From Candidatus Heimdallarchaeota archaeon (GTDB lineage Archaea; Asgardarchaeota; Heimdallarchaeia; JABLTI01): 64,000 bases of DNA. The stretch is taken from contig JABCTZ010000009.1 in NCBI GenBank assembly GCA_018238155.1, positions 1-64,000 of the forward strand, in the 5' to 3' direction. The notes under the pieces were generated by a model. That model was not told the origin of the DNA. It worked only from the letters and a program-made list of their open reading frames with translations, and searched no databases. The position numbers were made by a program, and so were the translations under genes. Shown here in pieces: positions 6,030 to 21,485 of this stretch (position 1 is the first letter of the stretch; every line of letters begins with the position of its first letter).

Positions 6030-6695
6030 TTAAGCGCCGCTTCTTTCACGTTCAATTTTCTTTCGGAGCTCAGCAATTTCATCGCCAATCTCATCATCTT
6101 CTTTTTCAGTTACTTTTGTTTTTCCAGTTGAGACACTGGTACCAACATCAGGTAACTCATCGACTTGCCCAAGAGAGAGCTCCATTTCTAACTCAGCCAT
6201 TTCTTGGTCGATCATATCTTCCATATCAATATCGAGTTCAGTTTCTGAAAAGGAAGTATCCGCTAAAGCTTCAGAAGCAAAGGCTACTTTTTCCATAGAG
6301 GATTGCATTTCAAACATAGCACGTTCGGTGTCAGCAGGACTGACGTTTTTAAGCGTATCCTCAATAACTACAACACCATCTTTAATAGCATGAGTAGTCT
6401 CAGCGACATCCTTGGCCTCAGAGATGGATTCAATCATTCCTTGTAAGTTCAAAATCTTATTCTGAGTCTCATTCAATTTCTTCAAATATAACTGGCGACG
6501 CATAAGAGCTTGCTTTGCACCGGCTTTATTGCCACCCTTCATCATATCTTTGGCAATACCTTTCTGTTCATCAGCTTGTTGCGTTAATCGTCTAGACTGG
6601 AGAGTATATTTGTTAATAACTCGACGAATTTTACTAATACTTTCAGTGTCTTTGGGCTTATCTTTGCCAAAGAGCCAATTTTTAACTTTGGGCAC
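6030..6695 (-). CDS. ESCRT-III Snf7-family protein (Vps20/Vps32/Vps60-like)
   Basis: N-terminal NWLFGK amphipathic motif; GNKAGAKQALMRRQLYLKKL core typical of Snf7; basic N-half and acidic C-half; terminal DEIAELRKKIE MIM-like helix; GTG start after GGTGGT. Confidence 0.92.
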   Translation of the reverse strand: MPKVKNWLFGKDKPKDTESISKIRRVINKYTLQSRRLTQQADEQKGIAKDMMKGGNKAGAKQALMRRQLYLKKLNETQNKILNLQGMIESISEAKDVAETTHAIKDGVVVIEDTLKNVSPADTERAMFEMQSSMEKVAFASEALADTSFSETELDIDMEDMIDQEMAELEMELSLGQVDELPDVGTSVSTGKTKVTEKEDDEIGDEIAELRKKIERERSGA

Positions 6696-6750
6696 GGTTT
6701 TCTTACCACCTAACTTTTTTACAATTTACTTGTTTTGAAATTTGGTTTTT

Positions 6751-6847
6751 CCCTTTCTATGTTCCGAGCCTTCCTGTTCATTGAACCGGTCGCGTTCTCC
6801 AGGTTAGCATTGCTCATGAGAGGGATTAGTAGATGCACTCAGCATCT
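6751..6847 (-). ncRNA. Candidate structured RNA or 5' leader with a K-turn-like motif upstream of ESCRT-III
   Basis: GC-rich island in an AT-rich spacer. Nested stems on the minus strand: GAGC/GCUC, CCUG/CAGG and GAAC/GUUC, with GA opposite AAUGA. Second hairpin AGAUGC/GCAUCU at 6831-6847. Confidence 0.45.
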
Positions 6848-6876
6848 TTGATATGATCAAGATTTCTCTTTTTTCT

Positions 6877-7155
6877 TTACCGATTCTGAGTTTCCTTTAT
6901 GATTATTCTGTCATTCATAATATTTAATGTTCCCATATGATACCCATTGATTGCAAGGTTCACCATTAATAATAAATGGTTTCTTAATGAACTTTTTTTA
7001 AAGTCCATTGCTTCTACTGTGCGTTTTAACTCAGTAGAGTGATATATAAAGTTATACAATTTGTAAGCTGAATGGCTTCTTTTTTCTATTTCTTTTGCTA
7101 GTTGTTTGAAATCTATTTCTCCATTTTCAAAGTCGTATCTTGTTTGTGTTTTCAA
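6877..7155 (-). CDS. Hypothetical protein (92 aa)
   Basis: Open frame with TTG start; no motif recognised. Confidence 0.4.
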   Translation of the reverse strand: MKTQTRYDFENGEIDFKQLAKEIEKRSHSAYKLYNFIYHSTELKRTVEAMDFKKSSLRNHLLLMVNLAINGYHMGTLNIMNDRIIIKETQNR

Positions 7156-7498
7156 CGATTTCTATCTTGTATTCGTAGTAACAATAGTGATATGACAAAG
7201 ACCGAAAAAAATTGATTAAAAGAAGCAATTGTTCTAAAATCCAGAGAATACTTTTATTTTGATTTCCATATAGTTTACTTGAATTGAAAATTATTTCCTA
7301 AGAAATAAGGAAGGAGATTTATAAGTTGCAGATAACTCGAAAATTAAGGAGAGGAGGATTTATGATAATATTTATTCTTTTATCCTTCTTCTTACTAAAA
7401 CGTGAACATAGTACTGGCACAACTGTTTGAGTGCATCCTTTAGTAAAAATGGAAAATTCTTTTAAATCTTGGTGCAAGTAGCATTTTAGTGAAATAAA

Positions 7499-8421
7499 AT
7501 GAAAAAATGGCTTAAAATCACAATTGTTTCTTCGATTAGTTTCTTACTTATTTCAGGACTGTTAGTCGTATTCGTTATCATTCCTGTTGTTGGAAAAAAT
7601 ACAATGCTTTTTCCTAAGCACCGGAAACATTTAATTCACCTGATGAATTTAGCATGACCTATGAAAATGTTACCTTTTCAACAAGCGATGGCTTGGTCCT
7701 TAAAGGATGGTATATTGAACCTCAAAACTCTTCAAAACCTGAATCAAATATAACGGTAATAGTCATCCATGGACAAGGTAGTTCAAAGTCATTTATGCTT
7801 GATCACTATGGTCAAGAATTATTTGATGTAGGTTATCGATTACTCTTCTTTGATTCTAGATATCATGGAGAATCTCCTGATGCTGAATTTGGTCTTTCGT
7901 ATGGTATTAATGAAGTTAAAGATATCAGAGCTGCTGTTGATTATGCTAAAGCTCAACCTGAAGTAAATGGTTCTCATGTTATTCTTCTTGCTGAAAGTAT
8001 GGGTGCTGCTACCACTCTTTTCTATACTGCGCGATATAATGATGTTGCTGGTATTATTGTTGATTCTTCTTGGGCAATGGGTGATGCAATGATAGAGCAA
8101 TTATGGCCTGTAGTATCTGGTCTTCCCTGGTTTATTTTCGGACAAATTACTGTTGCAATGTTGGAAAGTCATTATGGTTTTACATTTGCTGATATTTCAC
8201 CTGCTATTAATGCAACTACTATTACTACTCCAACTTTCATTGTACACGGATTGGCTGACATATCGATTAGTTATGATGATGCTGATTTAATCTATGATGC
8301 TTTACCTAGTTCATTACTAAAGGAAATTTGGACTTATCCTGGTAGGGGTCATGTAGAAAGTTATCTTGAGCCAAATTATTTCATAAATATAGCTAATTTT
8401 ATCACAACTATTTTTGCTTAA
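7499..8421 (+). pseudogene. Membrane-anchored alpha/beta hydrolase with a frameshift near 7615-7625
   Basis: ATG 7499 encodes a signal anchor (MKKWLKITIVSSISFLLISGLLVVFV). The catalytic frame (PETFNSPDEFSMTYENVTF...IHGQG...AESMGA...HG.AD...GH) lies in the -1 frame. Confidence 0.7.
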
Positions 8422-8458
8422 AAAAAGGAATTCAATCAAAATTCCTAGCAACTTTTTT

Positions 8459-9535
8459 TTAAATACACATTCGTTTTGTTCCTTCTCTTTCTTCATCAGT
8501 AATCATTAGTAACAGGCTTAGGGATGGATCATCAATCCTAGCTAATTCTAAGAAGCGAACAGAACCAGCAATGGATTCACGAATAGGCATGATAAGCTCT
8601 TCGTCATCTCCACCAAATTCCTTCATCTCTTTATCAAGTCTTTTTCCAAAATCTGCAGCCGATAATGATTGATTTAGAAAGAGCTCAAAATTCTCTTTGC
8701 ATTTTTCGATGAAGTTAGTATAGAGTTTTTCTCCAGCAATTTTCAAACCGATACATGCTGGTTCTAGAACATTCTTTGTCCATTCACTGATTATTTTAGG
8801 TCGATTTTCAATTGGGTCTTCAATTGTTATATGGGTTATTTTTCTACGAATAAATGGTATCTCTCTTTTTGTTGCTTCCAAAGTTCTTTCAGCAATTTTT
8901 GCTAATTCATTTAAACCGTTCTTATATCTAAAATTCCCAATTGTTTTTATAAAAGATCGAATGAAAAGAATTGCTTCTTCAGAGAGGTTGTAATTATTCT
9001 TAAGAATAGTTGCTGATTGATTTGCTGCTTCTTCCGGGGCAATTTTTTCTTGAACAATAGCTAGAAGTACTTGAGCAAGTATTTGTTGAGCTTCTGTTAT
9101 CTGGCTTTGTGACTTTAAACAAAAAATTAGTAATGGAGTTATTGTTTGTTCTATTACTAATTCAATCCAAGAAAGGATTATCTGTTGATTAATGAGCTCA
9201 GTTACGGAATCAATTACTTTTTTAGGATTCTTTTCTTCAATCATTTCTTCATAAAAGCTCTCAGCAAAATCATCAACTAATGAAGAAATAAAATCTAGTA
9301 TTCGCACTTCTTCTGGAGGTATTAGATTCTGTAAATTCGATTTGTGATTTTTCTTTTGAAGCTTGGAATAGAATAGCTTCCAAACTTCTTGTTTAATCGT
9401 TCCTTGTGTTTCATCAGTTATACCAAATAGCAGTGGTTGAATGATGGGCCAAAGTAATATTTCGTAGAGTTTTGTAAAGATGGGTTCATTCTTAGTAACG
9501 AATGCTGAAGTATCAATTTTGCTTTTCTTAGGAAT
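8459..9535 (-). CDS. All-helical protein with internal repeats, co-transcribed with the HerA-like ATPase; probable ATT start at 9535 (the ORF track starts it at 9307)
   Basis: The frame is open from 9556 to 8459. GGATGTGA RBS-like sequence precedes ATT-CCT-AAG-AAA (MPKKSK). Repeated motif LLWPIIQPLLF / VIEQTITPLLIF / TKNVLEPACI. Confidence 0.7.
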   Translation of the reverse strand: MPKKSKIDTSAFVTKNEPIFTKLYEILLWPIIQPLLFGITDETQGTIKQEVWKLFYSKLQKKNHKSNLQNLIPPEEVRILDFISSLVDDFAESFYEEMIEEKNPKKVIDSVTELINQQIILSWIELVIEQTITPLLIFCLKSQSQITEAQQILAQVLLAIVQEKIAPEEAANQSATILKNNYNLSEEAILFIRSFIKTIGNFRYKNGLNELAKIAERTLEATKREIPFIRRKITHITIEDPIENRPKIISEWTKNVLEPACIGLKIAGEKLYTNFIEKCKENFELFLNQSLSAADFGKRLDKEMKEFGGDDEELIMPIRESIAGSVRFLELARIDDPSLSLLLMITDEEREGTKRMCI

Positions 9536-9556
9536 GAATGCTTCACATCCGTCTTT

Positions 9557-12199
9557 CTATTTTAGGTTGAATATTTTGTTGTAGATGTTTTTCTTGAAAC
9601 GTTCTTTTGCAACAACGATAAATGAAATAGCTGTCTTGCCATCTTGCACTGCATATGAAATTCCGAGTGTTGCACTTTCAAGTCTCATTAGAATTACTAC
9701 TGAAGATTTTTCAGCAATAGTATTTTCAATTTCCCAACCAATATCTTCAAGTTGTTCTATTATTGATGGAATAACTTCATTTACAGCTGCTTCTTTTACA
9801 CCTGATCTTTGATGTTTATCGAATCTGGTTGACTTTGACCCATCAAAGAGAAACGTATTTTGCCCATACTCTAATTTTCTTTCAAGAATACTTAGAAGCA
9901 TCTTTGGTGGAAACTTTGTTGTTTCAGGAACTGGGAAGTCACCTGCTGCAGCTGATTTCTTAGGCGCATTTCTTTCAGGACGTGCTTTTGGTTTTTTTTC
10001 TTTTCGGGGGGCTTTTCTCTCTGGTATTGGTTCTGGGATTAGTTTTTCAACGTCATCTGGAATTTTAGCTTCAATTACTACATCTCGTTTATCAAGAATA
10101 TGAGTTGCTGCTTGCTTTTGATTTCGCATTTTATCTCGTAGAGCTTTTGGTACTGCTTCTCTTCCTGCATGTAGTGAAATTCTTGGTCTAATCTTGACGA
10201 CCAAACTTCTGTTCTGTGTCTTTTGATCAGAGATTAATCCAACACCTGTTGGCATGCTACGTATGAAATCGGATTCTTCAAATCTGTCTGGTACTGAAGA
10301 AGGTACACGTTTAAGAAATGCTTTAATGTCGTCTTCAAATGTTAGAAGATGAGTAATCATGATATCAATCTGACTCATGATATTTTTGTGCATTGCTGAT
10401 GGTTGTTGAGTTACTAGGACAAGAGCACAACCTGGTTTTCGCCCTTGCTTTGCGTATTCAATAAGCGGGTCCGATGCCGCAGTTTTTCTATTATTTGGCA
10501 CTAGAACGTGAGCTTCATCTATTAGTAACCAAGTAACCGGTATCAATCCATCATCTTCACCTGAAGTTTCAAATAGCTCACCTCGAGAGCTTTTGATTCT
10601 TTGTTCAAGGATTTTTCTAGCAATAATCCCCACAAGAAGTGCACGTAAACTATCACCAATCCTTGGGTTGCTAATATCCAGTACAGAAACCTTGTTTGGT
10701 GAGCTCAATGCTGATAGAGGTGTTCCCTTTCCTGAAAAGATCCCCCAGCCTTTTGCAGCATTCATACGAGAACGGATAGCTTGAATAGAATCTGAACGAT
10801 AACTATTCACAATTCCAGGATCATCTAAAGCATCCAATATGTCATCAATTGAGTAATCTGGTTGCTCTCGAGATACTATCTGCATTGCTTTTTCCAGAAC
10901 CGTTCCACGAATTTCATATCGATCAATATCGAATGTTCTACACCAATCTTCAATATGAAGGTCTGAAGGTTTCAAAGCAAAAGGTGTATCAACTGTTTCA
11001 TCTCGGTAATCATTGTAGATACCAATTGGAGTGAAAATTTCAATATTTTTCAAGAAATTAGGATTAAGACCCCATTTTTCTAGTAGAACACTTTCATTTA
11101 CATCCGAGTTTTCTTTTTTCAAGGCCCAAAAGATTCCAATTGGGTCAATAAGAATTACACCAACCCCAAGGTCTGCTTTAGAAAGCTCTTCTGCGATTAC
11201 ACCGAGAGTATAACTTTTACCAGAACCCCTGTGTCCTGAAATGAAAATAACGTGAGGAAAGACTGCATCTACAAGGACTTTTTTACCATACAAATCATGC
11301 TTGCCTTTTTCTGATACTCTACCTAGATACATTGTCCCCTGACAACCTATTTTTTTAATAGTGGAACTGCCTCGGCCAAGAATAATTGAATCATTTGTTG
11401 GTGCGCACCTAGCTTCTATAGGCAAATCAACTTTTGGAGCGAAACTTAGACTTTCACTCACTTCTTCAATATTTCTTTGAATATTCTCAAGAACATTTTC
11501 GTTTCTCATATAACCCAGAACAGCCAGTAAGTCAATTGGAACGTCACATTGCTCTATTTCCTTTGACAAGGCTTTCCTAGCATCGAAACTCCTGGGACCA
11601 AAATCTGGGTCGTACATTGATTTAATCCAGATAACCTTATCCAGATAAGCAGCAGCTTCTTCTTTACCAGTAACTTCTTTGGCTAAATCAAGAATGTTGT
11701 TTGGAAATTCAAATTCTCTGTTGGACATTATATAGGCAGAACAATATGGCCATAGTTTTTCTTCACGAGGAAGTGATTCAAGTAAATCGTAAATCTTCTC
11801 TTTAAGCTCTTTTTTATCTATTGAAAGTGAATAAGCAAATAATAATGCTCCAATGCGATCATCTGGATCAGACCATTCCTCTTGGAGTTCAATTAAACGC
11901 TCTATTTGTTTTTCATTAAAATCGATTGAACCATCTCGTTGTAGATAATAAAGCACTTTAATCTCAGATTCTTTTGGGAAATAACTTTCCCTAGTAAGAA
12001 TGTCCCTCATAATTTCTTTGCCGAGTTTTCTTGCATTTGAAGAAAATGTTTTATTATCCGTTAGTTCATAAGCAAGCATATTTGCTCGTGCAAGCAAAGC
12101 TCGTTCATGCGGATCAATTATCGAGCTATTCAAATCTGCTAAGCGATCTAACACTGTTGGTAAATAATGACAAGGTGATCTTCCAAACTCATATTCCAT
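9557..12199 (-). CDS. HerA/FtsK-superfamily (DUF87-type) ATPase with N-terminal helical extension and C-terminal extra domain
   Basis: Walker A GHRGSGKS, LIDPIG, Walker B LLIDEAH, GRKPG and VTQQP motifs. ATG 12199 follows a GGTGA RBS (the track start is 12223). Confidence 0.88.
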   Translation of the reverse strand: MEYEFGRSPCHYLPTVLDRLADLNSSIIDPHERALLARANMLAYELTDNKTFSSNARKLGKEIMRDILTRESYFPKESEIKVLYYLQRDGSIDFNEKQIERLIELQEEWSDPDDRIGALLFAYSLSIDKKELKEKIYDLLESLPREEKLWPYCSAYIMSNREFEFPNNILDLAKEVTGKEEAAAYLDKVIWIKSMYDPDFGPRSFDARKALSKEIEQCDVPIDLLAVLGYMRNENVLENIQRNIEEVSESLSFAPKVDLPIEARCAPTNDSIILGRGSSTIKKIGCQGTMYLGRVSEKGKHDLYGKKVLVDAVFPHVIFISGHRGSGKSYTLGVIAEELSKADLGVGVILIDPIGIFWALKKENSDVNESVLLEKWGLNPNFLKNIEIFTPIGIYNDYRDETVDTPFALKPSDLHIEDWCRTFDIDRYEIRGTVLEKAMQIVSREQPDYSIDDILDALDDPGIVNSYRSDSIQAIRSRMNAAKGWGIFSGKGTPLSALSSPNKVSVLDISNPRIGDSLRALLVGIIARKILEQRIKSSRGELFETSGEDDGLIPVTWLLIDEAHVLVPNNRKTAASDPLIEYAKQGRKPGCALVLVTQQPSAMHKNIMSQIDIMITHLLTFEDDIKAFLKRVPSSVPDRFEESDFIRSMPTGVGLISDQKTQNRSLVVKIRPRISLHAGREAVPKALRDKMRNQKQAATHILDKRDVVIEAKIPDDVEKLIPEPIPERKAPRKEKKPKARPERNAPKKSAAAGDFPVPETTKFPPKMLLSILERKLEYGQNTFLFDGSKSTRFDKHQRSGVKEAAVNEVIPSIIEQLEDIGWEIENTIAEKSSVVILMRLESATLGISYAVQDGKTAISFIVVAKERFKKNIYNKIFNLK

Positions 12200-12348
12200 A
12201 TTTTTCACCAATAATAAATTCAAATTAATTTCTCTTATACTATTCTCCTACACAATCAAACATAATAAGATTTGTTAATGGATTTTTTTATTTCAAAAGA
12301 ACAAATGTCACTAACATAAATATTAAAACGAGTCCATACAAGTTTAAA

Positions 12349-15300
12349 GTGAAAAAACATTCATTCCAAAGTCACAGGTATTCCAAAGGCATATTTGATA
12401 AGATACAGGGTAAAAATAGGCAGATGATACAATTGGTTGCACAAATCATTATTTCGCATGAAAATACGACGAGTTTTTTCTCAATTGGTTCTGTTCAAGA
12501 TGATGCTGCTTTAGTTTCAGCTCTTGGTGGAGCACTAGCAAGTTTTGCTATTGAGATGGGTTTGTCAGATATAGGTGCAACAAATGCTAATTATTCTAAA
12601 TTCCAGAATGGTGTTTTGATATCTAAATGGTTAGAGATAGATAATTATAAGCCATCTATTATGATCGCAATAAGGGATTTCGGTGATTTAGAACAATATC
12701 ATCACATGTTTCTAATTGATTATGGTACACTTCTAGCTAACAAAATCATAAGTGCTTTTGAAAAATTATATACCGGTGGAGGACAAGTACCTCGAATGGA
12801 AAACGCATTAAAGATAATTCCTAAAGTTGTGAATGAGCTTTTCAAAGACTCACCAAATACACTAAAAGAATTCACAAAAAAGATGGATGAAAATGTATCA
12901 CAACTATTAACTGATATTTGGGAAAATCAAAGCGATAAAGGAGTCCATCCACTTACATTTCGATCCGATATCTATGAACCAGTAAAAATTCAACAGATGA
13001 AGGATGATTTCGCAAAATATTTCTACAAAGAAGGAGTAACTATTGATGCAATATTTCCTTTGTATTTTGCCGGAGCAGATGATTTTCGTTTAGTCAATAA
13101 AACAATCAATGAATTTTTGAAGAATAATTCAAAAAGAGCTAGAGCTGATATTGTAAGTGAAATTAGCAAAATTGTTTCTCAATTAAGCAAGATGTCAAGT
13201 TCTCGTTCAAGAAGACAAAAACAAGAAATTGAAAGTGTTGATTTAATTAATGCAGATTTAATTTTTGAAAAAATACAAGTAGCAAAATTGAATTCTTTAG
13301 AGAAAACACGTTCACAAATCCTTGATGAAATATTTACAACACTCCTACAAAAATTATTTCATAATTTTCCGCTGAAATTTTTATCTTGTAGTGAAACAAA
13401 AGAAATTGATATTACCTTTATCAAAGAAGCTTTTGAAAAAACTGCCAAATCAATTGTAGACAAGTCATATTCCAATACCGAACAAATATCTAAACAAATT
13501 TCATCTATTTTAAGTGACATTGCTTCGAATTATACTCCTGAAGAAGTAATAAATCAAAGTGATGAAATTCTTAACAGAGTACAAAGTCAATTTATCAAAC
13601 TTATTAAGAAAGAAGATCCATTTCTGATTTTAGCTGATGAAAAACTGAAACGTTTATTGAACATCTCAAAAAAGCTGGCAAAAGATGCATTCGAGCAGTT
13701 TCGATCTGCTCATGATGAAGCTATGGCATTATGGTATATTATCCGTCAAATAAATAGATCCATCTCACATTTGAAGACAACAACAATACCAAATTTGATT
13801 GAGATATATTTTCTACAAAATCTTGTAAGACAATATCAATTTAGATCAATGCCTAAAATTGTCTTTCGATTGGTGAATGGAGTACTGAGAGATGTAAGCA
13901 GTTCTTCTCCATCCAAGGATCCTGTTTTATCCCTAATGCAAAGGAACATTCGAAGTTTTGAAAGAGATGCACAATTTTCAATTCCAATTGGAATAAAAAA
14001 CTCTATTTTGAAACAATTCAAATCTTCAAAAATCGCTCGAGAGAGCTTTGAAAACATAGAAGCTTTATCCTTCTTCTCAAAAGCATTTTCAAATTCTATG
14101 GAATTAACTGTAGCTAAACTCCTTGAAATGTTCTTTGGAACAAAAGATCATCCTCAACCTCCACAATTGCTTTCTAAAGCAATAGAAAAAATAGTCTATA
14201 CTTCACAAGGAATCTTTTCATTTAGAAGCATTATACAAGCAATAACCAATCAACCTGGTGCTCAAGCACTTTTTAGTAAAGATGCAGAATCATTGCTAAT
14301 TGCCACATTGAAATTCCAAAGCATTTTACCCTCTCCTTTGGAATTAGTACGAATTGCATATGAAACTGGTTGGATAAAAGATACAAAATCAGCAATATCT
14401 TCTGATGGAATTCCAAGTGCAAAAATCATGCCTAAAAATATTAATATTGGCTCTATCAAAAGGGCTTCATCAAAAATTTCTGATAGTAAATTTCTCGTAA
14501 AAAGAGTAACTATAGAAAAACATGATTTGACAGATAAGATTTCACAATTGATAAAAGATCCAATAATACTTACAGACCTTTGGGTTCTATTTGCTGAGGG
14601 TGCTTTCCGAAATCGATATCAGTCCTTAAGTGATTATTTACGTAAATTAGAGACAAAACAAAAAACCTCTTCTGGGTCCACAACAACAAAGAAGAGATAT
14701 GCTTCAATAATTAAAAAAACAAAGAACCTTATGAAAGCTTTAAACCAATTATCTTCTGGAGGAAACTTTTTCCAAAAGATTTTCGCAAAGAAAAAAGACC
14801 TTCGAAATCTACTATATGAAGCTTCTCGAGAGCAATTTTCCGGTTTGAATTATTATCCAGAAAACTTGTCTATCAATTCTGAACAAGGAACAATCAATGG
14901 CAAGAAAATAATTTCTGACACTTCTGTAGTACTTGGAAGTTTTAGTCTTCTATCAAAATTGTATGCTTCAACTTGGGTACGAGACTCTGAATATGTACGC
15001 AAACTGAAAGAGGATATTCTTTGGAGTGTTTTAGAAAAGAAATCTAAAAGGAATCTTCCTCTGGAAAAGAAGATTTTGGAAAATTTACAACAAGAAGCTG
15101 TTAGTCGAGGAAAGTTGGATCAAGAAACAGTAGTAAGAAACACTATAGAGCAGGAAGTATCCTTACTATTCAAGAGCGTAGTTAGAGAAGCAATAACTGC
15201 AGCATTTGATTCGATCAAAAATGAATTATTGGTGAGACTTGATAATCGAACAAAGGATTTCTATATTGAAATGGGCACAATAAATATCGAGAAAAAATAT

Positions 15301-15606
15301 TTGCAACCAGATTATGAGAAAATGAACTATACCAAATTTTTGAAAGCTTCAGATGGAACAACCAGAGTTCTTTTGATGGTTGATACTTTGTTACCTACGT
15401 TTAGTTCAAGGAAGAAAAAAGCTCATTCTATGCGAGTATACCTTCGTGATGGATTAAAAGATACTTTGAGAACGAGACACTTTAAAGCGTTCAATCAATT
15501 AGGGGAACTTGTGGATGAATATATTGGTGAACAAGCAGCTGATCTCTTCTTTACTAGAAGCAGAGTATTAGAACAGCTAATATTAGAATCAATCGACCAA
15601 AGCTAA
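12349..15606 (+). CDS. Large protein with N-terminal longin-like domain and ~900-aa mostly helical body (paralogue 1); probable start 12424 or 12433
   Basis: QIIISHE..SFFSIG..DDAALVSALGGALASFAIEMG fits the longin beta-beta-alpha1 signature; collinear with 18372-21485. Confidence 0.75.
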   Translation: MKKHSFQSHRYSKGIFDKIQGKNRQMIQLVAQIIISHENTTSFFSIGSVQDDAALVSALGGALASFAIEMGLSDIGATNANYSKFQNGVLISKWLEIDNYKPSIMIAIRDFGDLEQYHHMFLIDYGTLLANKIISAFEKLYTGGGQVPRMENALKIIPKVVNELFKDSPNTLKEFTKKMDENVSQLLTDIWENQSDKGVHPLTFRSDIYEPVKIQQMKDDFAKYFYKEGVTIDAIFPLYFAGADDFRLVNKTINEFLKNNSKRARADIVSEISKIVSQLSKMSSSRSRRQKQEIESVDLINADLIFEKIQVAKLNSLEKTRSQILDEIFTTLLQKLFHNFPLKFLSCSETKEIDITFIKEAFEKTAKSIVDKSYSNTEQISKQISSILSDIASNYTPEEVINQSDEILNRVQSQFIKLIKKEDPFLILADEKLKRLLNISKKLAKDAFEQFRSAHDEAMALWYIIRQINRSISHLKTTTIPNLIEIYFLQNLVRQYQFRSMPKIVFRLVNGVLRDVSSSSPSKDPVLSLMQRNIRSFERDAQFSIPIGIKNSILKQFKSSKIARESFENIEALSFFSKAFSNSMELTVAKLLEMFFGTKDHPQPPQLLSKAIEKIVYTSQGIFSFRSIIQAITNQPGAQALFSKDAESLLIATLKFQSILPSPLELVRIAYETGWIKDTKSAISSDGIPSAKIMPKNINIGSIKRASSKISDSKFLVKRVTIEKHDLTDKISQLIKDPIILTDLWVLFAEGAFRNRYQSLSDYLRKLETKQKTSSGSTTTKKRYASIIKKTKNLMKALNQLSSGGNFFQKIFAKKKDLRNLLYEASREQFSGLNYYPENLSINSEQGTINGKKIISDTSVVLGSFSLLSKLYASTWVRDSEYVRKLKEDILWSVLEKKSKRNLPLEKKILENLQQEAVSRGKLDQETVVRNTIEQEVSLLFKSVVREAITAAFDSIKNELLVRLDNRTKDFYIEMGTINIEKKYLQPDYEKMNYTKFLKASDGTTRVLLMVDTLLPTFSSRKKKAHSMRVYLRDGLKDTLRTRHFKAFNQLGELVDEYIGEQAADLFFTRSRVLEQLILESIDQS

Positions 15607-15726
15607 TTAAATTAAACAACAAGTTTTTACTTATCAATTATTATTTATTCGAAGGATGAATAGCTAGATACAGAGCTAAAAATTATTATTGTAATTTACT
15701 CTTCCAAAAAAGGAATGTGAAAAGAA

Positions 15727-17025
15727 ATGAAAATGTTAGTAATAGATGGTCAAATTGCAGGTGCAGCGGGAGATATGTTTCTTGGTGCTTTATTGGATCT
15801 TTACATTGTTGAACCAATGGATGTAACAAAAGCAGATAAAATGCGAGAAAATCTTGTTAATGAGTTAGCAAATAAAATAATTAAAGCAGCAAAACTTGAA
15901 GGAAAAGCAGAATTAGCTGTTAAAATTGAACGAAAAAATGAAAGGGCAGTAGAGGGTATTCATCTTAATATAAAAATAATTGAACCTCAAAGACACTTGC
16001 ATGCTCCTCAAGCGTTTGAACTAATTGAGAACGCAATCAAGCTTTTAGCTTTATCTAAAAAAGCCACTCAATTTAGCAAAAAAGCATTTGAAGTGCTTTT
16101 TGAAGCAGAGTCAAAAGCTCATGGTGAATCATTAGAAAAAGTTCATCTTCATGAAGCAGGATCATTGGATACTTTTCTAGATGTTTTAGGAACGGCTTAC
16201 TTGTTAGATAAAATGAAGCTATTTGAAGCGAAATTAACTGTTTTACCTATAGCACTAGGATCTGGTACTGTAACATTTTCCCATGGAACATTACCTGTTC
16301 CTGTACCTGCGGTAGCTGAAATAGTGAAAAAATATCAGATACCAGCCAAAGTTGGTACTTTAGGTGGAGAATTGTTTACTCCAACTGGGGCAATAATCAT
16401 TGCTGCCCTTATGAGTACAAATGAATATTCAATTCAAAAAGAGTCACCTGCATTTATTATAGAAAAATCTGGTGTAGGATTTGGAACAAAACAATTTGAA
16501 AAATCACCAAATGCTTTGAGATTACTTGTAGGGTCATTGGTACAAACGGATTATCAACGAGAAGACATTTTAGTTATCGAAACAAATCTTGACGATTGTT
16601 CTGGTGAAACAATTGGTTTTTTGAGTGCTAGATTGCTAGAATTAGGTGCAAAAGATGTTTTCCTAACGCCTATTTATATGAAAAAAGGAAGACCTGGAAC
16701 AAAAATAACTGTCCTTTGTTTACCAAAAGATGAGCTGAAATTCGCTTCAGAGATTATGAGTCAGACAAGCACAATTGGTGTACGAATTTCGCGAAATAGG
16801 AAAATAATGCTTTCACGAAGAATCAAAGAATTCACCATTAAAATTAAAGGAAAAAATTGGAAAGTTAGAGGAAAAATAGCTTATGGAGGTAATGGTGAAA
16901 TAGTTCATTTTAAACCTGAATTTGAAGATGTAAAAACTATTACTGAGAAAACAGGGTTAACCATAACTGAAGTTTCATCTCTTGCTATTGAAAAAATCTC
17001 TAAAGAAGTAAGAAAGGAGAGTTAG
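15727..17025 (+). CDS. larC: Nickel pincer cofactor biosynthesis protein LarC
   Basis: GAAGDMFLGALLDL, AESKAHG..VHLHEAG, HGTLPVPVPAV, ELFTPTGA, ETNLDD, MKKGRPG and KPEFED motifs. Confidence 0.95.
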   Translation: MKMLVIDGQIAGAAGDMFLGALLDLYIVEPMDVTKADKMRENLVNELANKIIKAAKLEGKAELAVKIERKNERAVEGIHLNIKIIEPQRHLHAPQAFELIENAIKLLALSKKATQFSKKAFEVLFEAESKAHGESLEKVHLHEAGSLDTFLDVLGTAYLLDKMKLFEAKLTVLPIALGSGTVTFSHGTLPVPVPAVAEIVKKYQIPAKVGTLGGELFTPTGAIIIAALMSTNEYSIQKESPAFIIEKSGVGFGTKQFEKSPNALRLLVGSLVQTDYQREDILVIETNLDDCSGETIGFLSARLLELGAKDVFLTPIYMKKGRPGTKITVLCLPKDELKFASEIMSQTSTIGVRISRNRKIMLSRRIKEFTIKIKGKNWKVRGKIAYGGNGEIVHFKPEFEDVKTITEKTGLTITEVSSLAIEKISKEVRKES

Positions 17026-17038
17026 ATGAATACTCCTT

Positions 17039-18097
17039 TCAACTTGTATTCTTTTCAGGAGTTAATTCTACCATACAATATCTATCTCTTTTTCCTGCAT
17101 GAAACAATTCTTTAATTTTGATTTGAATACCAAAGATTTCACTTAAGATTCCAACCCACATACCACGAATAAATGCACATCGGTTAGGTAATTGTTTTTC
17201 CGCGCAGAATTTTCGGCATTCATAGTAGATTAAATAACTATCAGCGTGACAATCCTGAAGAGTCGATTGAAGTAAGCCAATAAGGGGTTCATTTGTTTTT
17301 GTTATGAGAATTTTAACAATGAACTCACCAATGAGTTCTGATAAATTCAATATTTCTTCTTCAGTCTCATCTTCAATTATCTTTGTGATAAAACGCGAAA
17401 GATTTACCATTGATTCATTTTTTAGTGCTTCTTTTAAGGATTCATCTCCATCTATAGAGAAATTTGCTACATACGATTCTGTAATAACTTTCCAGGCCGT
17501 CTCTAAAAGAAAGACATCTGGCAAACTTTTTTGGAAAATTGGTTCGAACATGTTTCCAATAGTCAAACTTTCATGATTAGAAGTATCTCCAGCCTTCTTT
17601 GAAGTAGCAATTGAACCAAGCATTTTATCTGAACTTGCTTCTCGTAATCTCTGAAGAGTAATTTCATATTGGCTTCCTGTGCTAAATGAAAGCTTCACAG
17701 ATGCTGCAGTGGGAGCATTGAATAAGTGGTAACCGATTCCTTGAAAAATTGCTTGTAGAAATAGCAAAGTCCCTTTTTTGTCAGTTACTTCTTTAATCAT
17801 ATATCTGTTTTTCCCGATGATAATTTTTCCTGTGCCTAGCTTATCATCATAATTTATATTGATACTTTTCCATCCGAACGCAGTCAATAACTCAAAAGCA
17901 ACCTCTTTCATTTCTTTTGTTCCATCATCGATTATCGATCTCTCTCGAACGAATTTCTCCACATTGGAAACAAATACATCACTTAGTTGCTTATTATCTA
18001 CAATAAGCTCTGCAGATTGAAGTAGTGAGTAAAAGATTGTTCTAATCATTCTTTGTTCTTTTATAATGCCTAAAGCCATGTGACGTTTCACAACCAT
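17039..18097 (-). CDS. Protein with two V4R/Bet3(TRAPP)-like domains
   Basis: Domain 1: LLTAFGWKSINI...FLQAIFQGIGYHLF. Domain 2: CRKFC...CAFIRGMWVGILSEIFG...KELFHAGKRDRYCMVEL (V4R signature). Confidence 0.75.
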   Translation of the reverse strand: MVVKRHMALGIIKEQRMIRTIFYSLLQSAELIVDNKQLSDVFVSNVEKFVRERSIIDDGTKEMKEVAFELLTAFGWKSININYDDKLGTGKIIIGKNRYMIKEVTDKKGTLLFLQAIFQGIGYHLFNAPTAASVKLSFSTGSQYEITLQRLREASSDKMLGSIATSKKAGDTSNHESLTIGNMFEPIFQKSLPDVFLLETAWKVITESYVANFSIDGDESLKEALKNESMVNLSRFITKIIEDETEEEILNLSELIGEFIVKILITKTNEPLIGLLQSTLQDCHADSYLIYYECRKFCAEKQLPNRCAFIRGMWVGILSEIFGIQIKIKELFHAGKRDRYCMVELTPEKNTS

Positions 18098-18371
18098 ATT
18101 GTTGAGAATAACTGAGATTTAATCTTTTTTAATACATTGTTTAGCTATTTGGATTTCTTTCTTTAATTTCATATCTAATGTAATTTAAAATACTTAGGAT
18201 ACCAGATAACTGATAAAAAACAAAAATAATTCTTATTTTTACCTATTAGAAATCTTCAAAACTATTTAAAAGATATTATTTTTATTCAAATGCTGTTAAT
18301 ATACGTTCCAAAATACATATATCTACATATTTTCTTGAATACTTTAAAGTAATAATCAGTTTGGATTAATA

Positions 18372-21300
18372 TTGGACTCTCAAATAATTATTTCACGCGA
18401 AGATAACACCGATTTTCTTTCCTTAGGCTATATACAAACCGATACCTCATTAGTATCTGCTCTTGGTGGAGCTTTAGCTAGTTTTGCAGAAGAAATAGGT
18501 CTCAGCGGGGATAAATCTTCACCTGAGTATAAAAGAAACACTAGTATTAATTTATCCCGGTTTCCAAATGGTATAATTGCTTCAAAGATAGTTGTTGTTG
18601 GTGAGCAAAGCCCTGTTATTTTGGTTGCTATTCGAGGTTATTCGGGTCCAGATAAAGATTTGGATTTCATAGTTAGTTTTGCTGAAGTTTTAGCTAAAGA
18701 AATCGTTACTAAATTTGAGCCAGAATATACAAGTATTGGACTTGTTCCAAGAGTAGAGGAAGGAATAGACCAGATAATTTCTGCAGCACATTTCATGTAT
18801 AAGAAATCGAGTGATAAAGTACGCTATTTCACAAAAGCATTCAAACCAAAAATTGTTGCTTTATTTGAAGATATTTGGAAAAATCAAACTGATTTCGAAA
18901 TATGGTTTCACTCCAATGATTCAAAAAAATTATCTTCTATGTCCCAAAGTGAAATGCTACAAGAGCTTGCAAAATATATTTACATTCGAGGTGTAAAGGA
19001 TGATGCTCTTTTTCCACTCTATTTTGCATCACACTCAAACCCTATGAATGAAGTTAAAAAACTAATTGGAGCTTTCTTGAACAAAAAAGCATCTGTTTCT
19101 AGGAATGAAATAACAGGAGAAATTGGTAAAGTTTTCACTCAGCTAATGGAAGCTTCTCGAGCTTTGTCAGCAAGAGGCTCTATTGAAATATCTGATGTTG
19201 ATTTAATTGATGAAGGAACAATCTTTGAGAAAATTTTGGTCGCTAAAATTGATAAATTGCCCAAGGTTGTCTCAGAAATTATTCAAGTAACAAACAAAGA
19301 ACTTTATCGGAAACTGTTCAGTAAATATCCGCTAAAATTCGTTTCTATGTCAAAAGCGAATGTTTTTGCTAAGAGTGAATTGGATCGAATTGTTGAGACA
19401 ACATTAGCAAAAATATTGAAAGATGTTCTAGTGGATAAAAATTGGATTCTAGAAAAAATTCTCTTGATAATTAGACAAGTAACTTCTAAATATTCTCCAA
19501 ATGATGTTATGGAAAATGAATCATTGATCTTTGAGAAAGTCTATGAGGATTTTATTAATTCAGTCATGAAAGAACATCCTTTCATACTTCTAGCCGACCC
19601 AACTTTTGCATCTTTGGGTCCCATTGTAAGGAAACTATCCAAAGAAGCTCTTGAAAAATTCAGAACTTCCTTGGATGAAGCGGTTATTTTATACAATGTA
19701 ATCGGTCAAACTTATTCAACATTGACAAACGAAAATAATCCTTCAACGCAAGATTTAATGATTCTTTATTTTTTGCAGAATGTCATACAACCCTATCAAC
19801 TACGTGATGTTCCAGACATGGTTTATACTCTCATTGCTGATTGTTTGGAAAAAACTGTTCAAGGTAAGAGACGCAAACCAGAAGTTATTTTGGAAAATAG
19901 TATGCGTGAATTTGAAAAAAAGTTACAATTCAATATTGTACCAGATACTAAGAAAACAGTGCTGGGAAGAATTTCTCGTGCTAAACCGACCTTACAACGA
20001 TTTGAAACGTTTGAAAATCTTGGTTTCTTCTCTCAATCATTTCGCTCATCTCTTGAAACTACTATCTCAAGAATATTACAGACAATATTTGGTCCAGAAA
20101 AATTACCTTATCCACCGAACGAATTACTTAGAATGATAGAAAAGCTTTCTTCAGAACTTCAAAGCTTTTTCATTTTAAAAGAGTTTATAGATAGAATTAC
20201 TAGAAGACCTGGTGGTCGTGAATTATTCTCTAGTGACGGAATAAAAATCCTTGATAAAAACACTAAAATAAAGTCAATTCTTCCAACTGCAATTGAATTA
20301 GCTCAAGAAGCTTATAATTCTGGTTGGTTGAAACCCATTGATCAAAAGAAATTGACTAATATAAGTGAAGTTCAATTAAAATCGCTCAAAGTTAAAATCC
20401 CTTCCTTGGAACTTGAAGGCAGAGTTGACACAATTTTGGAGTATCCAAAGGTTGTGGAACATCTTTGGGTTAAATTTGCGGTAAAAATTATTGAAAGACG
20501 GCAAAAGGATTTGAAAAACGCTATCTCTATATTTGATAAACAATCAAAAATTTCTGCTGGAGATACAAGTGGAAAGAAAAAATTCGGCATTACATTGAAG
20601 AAATTGAAAACGTTACATAAATCTCTTACAAGCTTGGTTGCGGGTGGAGGCATTATGAGAAAGTTTTTCACAGGGAGCAAAGAACTAAATCTGCTCTCTC
20701 ATGAAGTTGTTAATGAACTATCTCCTACCTTGAAATTCCACCCAATCGAATTCGAAAAAGAATTAATTCATTTACTTGCAACAAAAATTAAAGACAGTTT
20801 TAGGTCAGTGGTAGGCGACTTTCAAGACCTAATGAAAATTTACACTTCAATTTGGTTTGTCGATTCTCAATATATTGAGGATCTTGAATCGAAATTTTTC
20901 TGGGAAGGTGTAGGAAAGAAGGATATTTCTTCAAATGATAATAATTCTTTAGAAGGGAAAATAAATGAGAATTTGAAAGCTGCATACAAGAAGAAACGTA
21001 TAAATGGTGCACAAAAATCAATTATCAGAAGAACAATCGTTGAAGAAGCAATACCAATTTTCTATCAAAGTGTTCGAACAGCTTTAAGTATACCCTTTAG
21101 TGTTTTTACGACAGGAAATATTGTCAATTTCGATAGCCAAAGAAAACAATGGTACATTTCTCTTGGTAAGATTAAACTTCCTGCGATGCATCTGAAGTTA
21201 CTTCTTGGGACAATTGATTCATTATATTATGTAAAAGAGGTAGATGATACAACAGATGTTCGTGTATCTCTACAATATTTCGATACACCCAAAAGATCAA

Positions 21301-21485
21301 AAGACTCACAATCAATTGAACTCTTCCTTAGAAGAGCATTAGTTAACAATTTAAACAAAAAAGAGTTCAAAGCACTCGAATTCTTTGGCGATTTGAATGA
21401 AAGATATATTGGAAAATCTGCAACGAATACTTTTTACTCAAGCTTTAGATCCCTTGCTCAAATAATTATCACACCAATAGAATAA
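18372..21485 (+). CDS. Large protein with N-terminal longin-like domain and helical body (paralogue 2)
   Basis: QIIISRE..DFLSLG..TDTSLVSALGGALASFAEEIG; many blocks shared with paralogue 1 (FPLYFA, IFEKI.VAK, PLKF, YFLQN, SILP...AY..GW.K). Confidence 0.75.
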   Translation: MDSQIIISREDNTDFLSLGYIQTDTSLVSALGGALASFAEEIGLSGDKSSPEYKRNTSINLSRFPNGIIASKIVVVGEQSPVILVAIRGYSGPDKDLDFIVSFAEVLAKEIVTKFEPEYTSIGLVPRVEEGIDQIISAAHFMYKKSSDKVRYFTKAFKPKIVALFEDIWKNQTDFEIWFHSNDSKKLSSMSQSEMLQELAKYIYIRGVKDDALFPLYFASHSNPMNEVKKLIGAFLNKKASVSRNEITGEIGKVFTQLMEASRALSARGSIEISDVDLIDEGTIFEKILVAKIDKLPKVVSEIIQVTNKELYRKLFSKYPLKFVSMSKANVFAKSELDRIVETTLAKILKDVLVDKNWILEKILLIIRQVTSKYSPNDVMENESLIFEKVYEDFINSVMKEHPFILLADPTFASLGPIVRKLSKEALEKFRTSLDEAVILYNVIGQTYSTLTNENNPSTQDLMILYFLQNVIQPYQLRDVPDMVYTLIADCLEKTVQGKRRKPEVILENSMREFEKKLQFNIVPDTKKTVLGRISRAKPTLQRFETFENLGFFSQSFRSSLETTISRILQTIFGPEKLPYPPNELLRMIEKLSSELQSFFILKEFIDRITRRPGGRELFSSDGIKILDKNTKIKSILPTAIELAQEAYNSGWLKPIDQKKLTNISEVQLKSLKVKIPSLELEGRVDTILEYPKVVEHLWVKFAVKIIERRQKDLKNAISIFDKQSKISAGDTSGKKKFGITLKKLKTLHKSLTSLVAGGGIMRKFFTGSKELNLLSHEVVNELSPTLKFHPIEFEKELIHLLATKIKDSFRSVVGDFQDLMKIYTSIWFVDSQYIEDLESKFFWEGVGKKDISSNDNNSLEGKINENLKAAYKKKRINGAQKSIIRRTIVEEAIPIFYQSVRTALSIPFSVFTTGNIVNFDSQRKQWYISLGKIKLPAMHLKLLLGTIDSLYYVKEVDDTTDVRVSLQYFDTPKRSKDSQSIELFLRRALVNNLNKKEFKALEFFGDLNERYIGKSATNTFYSSFRSLAQIIITPIE

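Follow-up and report, generated by a model that had tools for sequence, protein, structure and literature searches.

Giant proteins with longin-type heads beside a tandem V4R/Bet3-fold protein in one family of Heimdallarchaeia

Introduction

Do two giant archaeal proteins that appear to begin with a longin domain, and that flank a small protein of two V4R/Bet3-like domains, represent a forerunner of the eukaryotic TRAPP complexes, or are they a local invention with a different history? The question is raised by a four-gene locus at 12.3–21.5 kb of the window, that is, the whole stretch of 64,000 nucleotides analyzed here, from Candidatus Heimdallarchaeota archaeon (GenBank assembly GCA_018238155.1). 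The window lies on contig C10 (JABCTZ010000009.1) of this Asgard assembly of 4.08 Mb and 46 contigs (genome G000). Its locus is composed of giant 1 (12424–15606, + strand), LarC (15727–17025, +), the gene of a 352-amino acid (aa) tandem V4R/Bet3-fold protein (17039–18097, −), and giant 2 (18372–21485, +). A preliminary description of this DNA had proposed a proto-TRAPP or guanine nucleotide exchange factor (GEF)-like module, in which a heterodimer of the two giants would join the V4R protein. In TRAPP, Mon1-Ccz1, DENN, Ragulator, and MglB, it is longin and roadblock domains that provide the platform for GTPase binding (PMC10933270; PMC12290439).

The giants are soluble, net-basic proteins of about 1040–1060 aa that would consist of three parts: a longin-type head, a helical body of ~780 aa, and a small C-terminal domain. 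The reading favored here, to which we assign a probability of about 0.45, is that they form a lineage-specific scaffold built on a longin platform and probably linked to a Ras-family GTPase, in which giant 2 and the V4R protein make up the pair that is always kept.

Two full-length paralogues confined to one archaeal family

The two giants are paralogous over their full length, at 33% identity and 52% positives across 1075 aligned residues (E 5e-175), and all ten motif blocks quoted in the preliminary description are present in the alignment. Giant 2 is a protein of 1037 aa with a TTG start. The open reading frame (ORF) of giant 1 opens at a GTG at 12349 and runs to 15606 (1085 aa). The true start is probably the ATG at 12424, for a protein of 1060 aa: orthologues of 38–88% identity start at the position of M26 of the ORF, with MVAQIIIS or MIQLVAQIIIS.

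The distribution of the giants is strikingly narrow. A word-based search with giant 1 returned 26 relatives of 1024–1062 aa, except for one partial entry of 711 aa, all of them from Asgard metagenome bins named Heimdallarchaeota, "Asgard group", or Gerdarchaeota. An exhaustive search of 1.84 billion representative proteins with a profile of the 39-sequence family alignment gave 18 sequences, every one a family member or a fragment at a contig end, and found no relative outside the family. Among 400 Asgard species genomes, 12 encode giants, namely the window's own and 11 of the 11 others of the same family, which comprises two genera; a giant query found none in the 388 genomes outside it. On this distribution, the giants look to be a narrow, local invention of a single Heimdallarchaeia family. 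As they occur in one family and lack remote relatives, they would be a late arrival and not an ancestor of TRAPP. The proto-TRAPP proposal is weakened by this distribution and by two other points: giant 1 is dispensable in some species, and homologues of the V4R protein occur across the class without giants.

Within the family, each sequence is an orthologue of either giant 1 or giant 2. The two form separate clades with 100% support, about 1.2 changes per site apart, and the identical lineage branches earliest in both. The duplication therefore appears, on the tree, to predate the sampled radiation of the family, in agreement with the old duplication suggested beforehand. The accompanying idea that both copies were kept does not hold everywhere. 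Two species (L079, G081:C221; L080, G089:C153) cleanly lack giant 1 between HerA and LarC, and in the metagenomic contig L082 no giant 1 stands next to LarC. In another genome (G084; L081 17023–19901) a frameshift near residue 547 divides giant 1, perhaps through an error of assembly, since a near-identical genome (L003) has giant 1 intact. The species that lack giant 1 nest inside the giant 2 tree, which argues for secondary loss. Giant 1 would then be an accessory paralogue lost in some species, and an obligate heterodimer of the two giants is unlikely.

The longin-type head

The AlphaFold2 model of giant 2, built on the 39-sequence family alignment, has a mean predicted local distance difference test score (pLDDT) of 84.3 and a predicted template modeling score (pTM) of 0.64. 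Its head (residues 1–115; 18372–18716, +) is modeled as strands 2–8 and 15–18, helix 25–41, strands 60–64, 67–73, and 82–88, and helix 94–114. This succession of strand-strand-helix-strand-strand-strand-helix is the longin order. Roadblock domains begin with a helix, whereas longin domains begin with a strand. Matches to solved structures point in the same direction. A second structure aligner placed the head on Sec22b with Z 8.0 and a root-mean-square deviation (rmsd) of 3.6 over 113 aligned residues, followed by synbindin (7.7), sedlin (7.5), VAMP7 (7.3), TRAPPII small subunits (7.3), and the CPLANE longins (6.9), with lower values for roadblocks and MglB (6.2–6.8). Foldseek gave probabilities of 0.96–1.0 to Sec22b, Ykt6, Tca17, a TRAPPII small subunit, and Ragulator subunits. 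The list of matches is homogeneous, longins and then roadblocks, and spans the whole domain. Together, the order of strands and helices and the matches to solved longins bear out the assignment of longin domains to the giants' N-termini in the preliminary description. The head of giant 1 (12424–12768, +; ORF residues 26 to ~140) is collinear with the modeled head of giant 2 and carries the invariant helix LVSALGGAL..FA.E.GL.

Profile comparisons narrow down the kind of longin. Against PF19036-like longins of Asgard archaea, the head scored an hhalign probability of 81% (E 1.2e-5) over 40 columns, as opposed to 1.1% against the genome's own roadblock set. Its neighbors in the ESM Atlas are Asgard clusters labeled "adaptor small chain" and Fuz_longin_1 (scores 0.87–0.89). 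Many proteins of the family's genomes have weak matches to Pfam Fuz_longin_1, and such Asgard proteins have a signature in common with the giants over the first two strands and the first helix. A hidden Markov model (HMM) of Asgard longin-like domains recovered some 40 ORFs of 142–1848 aa in this genome; the giants' head is too diverged to be recovered by it. By these comparisons, the head appears to belong, in diverged form, to a large expansion of Mon1/Fuzzy-like longins, nearer to the Mon1/Fuzzy-type longins of Asgard archaea than to the longins of TRAPP.

The expansion itself is varied. The ~40 ORFs include about ten proteins of 690–900 aa with the domain near the C-terminus, two of ~1840 aa, and a type of 457–468 aa apparently with three such domains (examples in G000: C7:381735–382460, C11:93212–94615, C15:195791–198142, C7:105048–110567, and C1:96995–102538).

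Conservation in the giants peaks at the very start of the head. Among the first 40 positions, 23 are conserved and common to both paralogues, far above any other region. Strands 1 and 2 are joined by a loop of the sequence (R/H)ED.T.F, in which E10 and T13 are invariant. Nowhere else are the giants so conserved as in these two strands and the helix that follows, which hardly differ between the paralogues and are taken as the probable working surface of the head.

The helical body and the C-terminal domain

Residues 128–911 of giant 2 (18753–21104, +) are modeled as helices throughout, except for two short strands at 673–684. For the present, this body is provisionally without a recognized fold, as judged from the model. 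A wide VIA search of 48,161 chains returned none at Z 8. Foldseek with the whole giant 2 model aligned the body poorly to long solenoids (probability <0.2, rmsd >30 Å), and in the ESM Atlas the shape search reached a template modeling score of ≤0.22 by query while the feature search scored ≤0.86, to unnamed Asgard clusters. No internal repeats were found (best hhalign probability 10.5%). MIT-like three-helix bundles suggested at residues 628–775 (Z 6.7–7.0) were rejected as generic matches at noise level. Pfam gave sub-threshold noise for both giants.

Both giants are net basic (K+R > D+E), and neither has a transmembrane segment. Each has, between two body helices, a pair of glycines followed by a short amphipathic segment: GGNFFQKIFAKKKDL in giant 1 (14758–14802, +) and GGGIMRKFFTGSKEL in giant 2 (20643–20687, +). 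G758 and G759 (giant 2 numbering) are invariant and F766 is nearly so, and the segment could contact a membrane or a partner. The C-terminal domain of giant 2 (residues 918–1037; 21123–21482, +) is composed of four strands and one short helix, then three helices, and has no profile similarity to the longin or roadblock sets.

The tandem V4R/Bet3-fold protein

The 352-aa protein is modeled (pLDDT 80.9) as two domains, residues 1–150 (17648–18097, −) and 172–347 (17057–17584, −). Domain 1 best fits the TRAPPC6 subunit TPC6/Trs33 (3kxc_C, 2cfh_D; Z 10.9, rmsd 3.2, 127–133 aligned residues), followed by the V4R sensors DmpR, PoxR, and MJ1460 (Z 9.3–9.7) and by Bet3/Trs31 (Z 7.8–9.5). Domain 2 fits H-NOX domains at Z about 7 over residues 179–352. 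In both Foldseek and VIA, the matches to Bet3/TRAPPC6, V4R, and H-NOX belong to one fold class, and the nearest ESM Atlas cluster carries V4R (score 0.94). The two V4R-like domains anticipated for this protein are thus borne out for both halves by the model and by fold matches. At the level of sequence families, Pfam V4R (PF02830) gave no match above the cut-off, and 2 of 42 orthologues matched at E 0.12. The two domains differ in one telling respect. Domain 1 is devoid of cysteines. Domain 2 bears a Cys/His cluster in which C298, C307, C341, and H333 are invariant and C294 is ≥90% conserved among the 42 orthologues; this cluster resembles the zinc site of V4R proteins and Thor-TRAPPC3 (PMC10933270). 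The label "tandem V4R/Bet3-fold" is, by the model, right at the level of the fold, at which the protein appears no closer to Bet3 than to prokaryotic V4R domains.

Unlike the giants, this protein has a wide distribution. Homologues of 22–30% identity are found in five other families of the class, in 63 of 400 genomes, and neither giants nor LarC stand beside them there. In a sister family, represented by one genus, 8 of 9 loci (L035 8210–10418; also L066–L069 and L071–L073) have the gene of a 190-aa Ras-family GTPase (Pfam Ras E 1.3e-40) ~600 bp upstream of the homologue. At a sister-family locus, a gene pair of 745 and 483 aa at the position of giant 2 was considered as a diverged giant and dismissed, the first being a PAS histidine kinase. 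The window's genome has a second tandem-V4R protein at another place (G000:C21:169893–170663), an ORF of 508 aa that Pfam V4R matches twice.

Other arrangements in the genome join the same types of domain. A 295-aa protein (G000:C16:6253–7137; L077 1483–2367, minus strand) combines a longin-like head (residues 5–113; custom HMM, E 2e-10) with a C-terminal V4R domain (237–289; Pfam, E 4.6e-8). At C7:35200–35663, a V4R gene (186-aa ORF) and a roadblock/LC7 gene (151-aa ORF) abut on the same strand. A fusion of a longin-like head with V4R is known from another Heimdall protein (PMC10933270). The genome as a whole has 42 Ras-family and 10 roadblock matches. Given these longin/roadblock–V4R links and the GTPase-adjacent tandem-V4R genes of the sister genus, a partnership of V4R proteins, longins, and GTPases is plausible on genomic grounds.

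Gene order around the giants

The V4R gene and giant 2 stand head to head, as first described, across a divergent intergenic region of 274 bp (18098–18371, no strand). They do so in every assembled relative, including the loci without giant 1. Co-occurrence in relatives holds for the V4R gene and giant 2, and breaks down for giant 1 where that gene is missing. The V4R gene does lie between the giants, but not by itself: LarC, overlooked at first, shares the interval, beginning 121 bp 3′ of giant 1. It encodes a protein of 432 aa that inserts nickel into the nickel-pincer cofactor (Pfam PF01969 Ni_insertion, E 1.5e-106) and adjoins the V4R gene in all related loci. LarC is probably a housekeeping passenger, constant as its place beside the V4R gene is throughout the family. 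A functional membership was set aside as the less simple reading on two counts, a LarA homologue elsewhere in the genome (G000:C13:153886–154494) and the lack of LarC beside tandem-V4R homologues in other families.

Upstream of giant 1 and divergent from it lies a HerA/DUF87-type ATPase (9557–12223, −; 888 aa; Pfam DUF87 E 2.7e-13 and HerA_C), with a partner gene 3′ of it (8459–9307, −; 282 aa) and an ESCRT-III (Snf7) gene beyond (6030–6695, −; Pfam Snf7 E 6.7e-15). Orthologues of the partner, at 53% identity and 280–370 aa, follow HerA in relatives and belong to no known family. The Snf7 orthologue is 85–97% identical across the family, far above its neighbors. The stretch from Snf7 to HerA occupies 6030–12223 in the window, 1297–5845 in L079, 2361–6902 in L080, and 5063–9746 in L005; in the window, a gene for an alpha/beta hydrolase (7654–8421) is inserted in it.

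Weighing the explanations

In the reading favored here, the giants would most likely bind or regulate one of the ~40 Ras-superfamily GTPases through this conserved surface at the start of the head, and the helical body would serve as an arm or scaffold. The tandem V4R protein would be the most plausible partner of giant 2, or else a co-regulated component that binds a ligand. A number of observations weigh against this reading. The structure matches of the head reach no more than moderate scores (Z 8.0 at best), and the pLDDT of its first helix is only 43–57; no match of a curated Pfam longin HMM to the head was found, and the head's profile had no match among the sequences of solved structures at E up to 10. 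The GP motif of longins of the GTPase-activating protein (GAP) type is absent from the first loop in the alignment. The locus and its surroundings are free of GTPase genes: as already noted in the preliminary description, the window holds none of the genome's 42 Ras-family matches, the nearest being at C10:111682. Tandem-V4R homologues get along without giants in five other families, and the adjacency of GTPase and tandem-V4R genes is known from just one genus of the sister family. The loss of giant 1 in some species speaks against an obligate heterodimer. All synteny is drawn from one family, and the conserved block also keeps LarC, an ADP-forming CoA ligase, and an M42 peptidase. With a single family and unrelated housekeeping genes in the block, adjacency is weak evidence for a complex or a common function. 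In a complex prediction that combined the two heads with the V4R protein and scored the head of giant 2 as the partner, the values were 0.16 and 0.13, where the mark is 0.32; it was run without controls and is not used as evidence for or against.

The TRAPP-like alternative has the two giants pairing as a longin heterodimer, on which the tandem V4R protein docks as a single-chain mimic of a Bet3 pair, to make a compact tethering or GEF complex related to the origin of TRAPP. Its ingredients are present: longin-type heads whose best matches include synbindin, sedlin, and TRAPPII small subunits, a TRAPPC6-like fold in domain 1, conserved gene neighbors, and a longin–V4R fusion in the same genome. 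These same ingredients admit of a different account, since domain 1 fits V4R sensors nearly as well as TRAPPC6, domain 2 keeps a V4R-type Cys/His cluster, and the head lies nearer to Mon1/Fuzzy-type longins. The restriction to 12 of 400 genomes and the lack of remote relatives among 1.84 billion proteins sit poorly with an ancestral complex, as does the absence of giant 1 from at least two species that retain giant 2 and the V4R gene. Furthermore, the longin subunits of TRAPP have no counterpart of the fused 900-aa extension, and PF04099 (Sybindin) has no match in the 12 family genomes, where all controls were equally negative. This alternative is improbable. Less so, if still rather unlikely, is that the giants are structural or adaptor scaffolds outside GTPase control, with the head as a general protein-binding or autoregulatory module like that of longin SNAREs, adaptor sigma/mu subunits, or SR-alpha, and with the V4R gene as an independent neighbor that binds small molecules. 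Sec22b, VAMP7, Ykt6, adaptor small chains, and the SRX domain of SR-alpha are all among the top matches of the head, and its nearest ESM Atlas cluster is labeled adaptor small chain. The body is large, helical, and basic, and its amphipathic segment could reach membranes or partners. The locus has no GTPase, tandem-V4R homologues occur elsewhere without giants, and Tran et al. prefer ligand binding for Asgard V4R/TRAPPC3 proteins (PMC10933270). Yet the giants have neither a SNARE motif nor a transmembrane anchor, and neither Foldseek nor VIA found a coat, adaptor, or tether fold in the body. In addition, conservation peaks on the first two strands and first helix, the region said to form the catalytic pocket in GAP-type longins (PMC12290439).

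Could the giants instead work with the genes on their other side, in membrane remodeling or translocation driven by HerA, or as part of a defense island? HerA is divergent from giant 1 in the window, L003, L005, L083, G082, and G091, and Snf7, partner, and HerA are collinear on one strand in G081, G089, and G091 and adjacent in G082. The association comes apart elsewhere. In the earliest-branching lineage (L006), HerA and giant 1 are set apart by an insert of 7.7 kb; in L082, LarC is flanked by neither HerA nor giant 1; and in G090, Snf7 is on a separate contig. These genes are, moreover, transcribed divergently from the giants, the MIT-type matches of the body are at noise level, and the defense-system models of PADLOC match neither the giants nor the V4R protein. 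A joint function of this kind is very improbable. The genes inserted in L006 (2542–9714) code for an LRR-Roc GTPase of 935 aa, a protein of 1206 aa with TSP3 repeats, and a product of 86 aa. In a bolder version of the favored reading, giant 2 would combine with the V4R protein into a minimal exchange factor or effector platform of TRAPP-like kind but independent origin, serving one of this archaeon's Ras/Rab-like GTPases; the longin head and a single-chain Bet3-like pseudo-dimer would form the GTPase site, the novel helical body would tether the assembly to a membrane or to the neighboring ESCRT-III/HerA machinery, and giant 1 would be a paralogue that specializes it. As a whole, this chain of suppositions is distinctly improbable.

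Relation to known systems

How do the giants compare with systems of established architecture? In tri-longin-domain RabGEFs, each subunit has three longin domains, and the subunits heterodimerize through the first. The giants are likewise two paralogous large proteins, each apparently starting with a longin domain, and their head resembles Asgard Fuz_longin_1 domains by profile and CPLANE longins by structure (Z 6.9). They differ in having a single longin followed by ~780 aa of helices in place of two further longins, in the dispensability of giant 1 in some species, and in being limited to one archaeal family, known here from sequence and models. In the TRAPP core, the longins are Bet5/TRAPPC1, Trs23/TRAPPC4, and Trs20/TRAPPC2, and the Bet3-fold subunits are Bet3, Trs31, and Trs33. 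Like it, the locus pairs longin-fold with Bet3-fold proteins (domain 1 with TRAPPC6/Trs33 at Z 10.9; the head with synbindin and sedlin at Z 7.5–7.7). Here the likeness is at the level of the fold alone and comes without a sequence-family match; the giants' longins carry 900-aa extensions, and on the Bet3-like side both domains sit in tandem in one chain, which has a Cys/His cluster of V4R type.

Among prokaryotic relatives of the fold, Thor-TRAPPC3 (7yh3/7yh2) matches the 352-aa protein at Z 7.0–7.6, and the V4R sensors PoxR, DmpR, MopR, and MJ1460 have the same fold and a zinc site that the Cys cluster of domain 2 resembles (PMC10933270). Unlike Asgard TRAPPC3/V4R proteins, the 352-aa protein has two domains in one chain in place of a homodimer, and its domain 1 has lost all cysteines. 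The stand-alone and multidomain longin and roadblock proteins of Asgard archaea have the signature over the first two strands and first helix in common with the giants (ETLVSGFLGAIVSFAEKLG vs. TSLVSALGGALASFAEEIG); the giants' head is nonetheless missed by the HMM of that set and by Pfam, and the helical body is unique to their family. GAP-type longins such as FLCN, SMCR8, and NPRL2 have the GP motif where the second strand begins or immediately ahead of it, next to an arginine finger (PMC12290439). The first loop of the giants lacks GP, and its arginine, R9, is conserved in paralogue 2, giant 2, only.

Significance

Longin and Bet3/V4R-fold proteins are among the Asgard evidence for building blocks of membrane trafficking that predate eukaryotes. 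We know of no Asgard longin with a demonstrated partner or activity. The giants offer a concrete and unusually large test case, with a conserved longin surface and a constant Bet3-fold neighbor. It extends to species with and without giant 1 for comparison and to a protein with a longin-like head and V4R in the same genome. In the models, the folds recall eukaryotic trafficking regulators, and any TRAPP-like assembly or action would be conjecture; restricted as they are to one family, the giants say little about direct TRAPP ancestry. If the pair does not bind a GTPase, it would caution against inferring eukaryote-like complexes from fold likeness and gene adjacency. If it does, longin platforms would have been elaborated independently in archaea.

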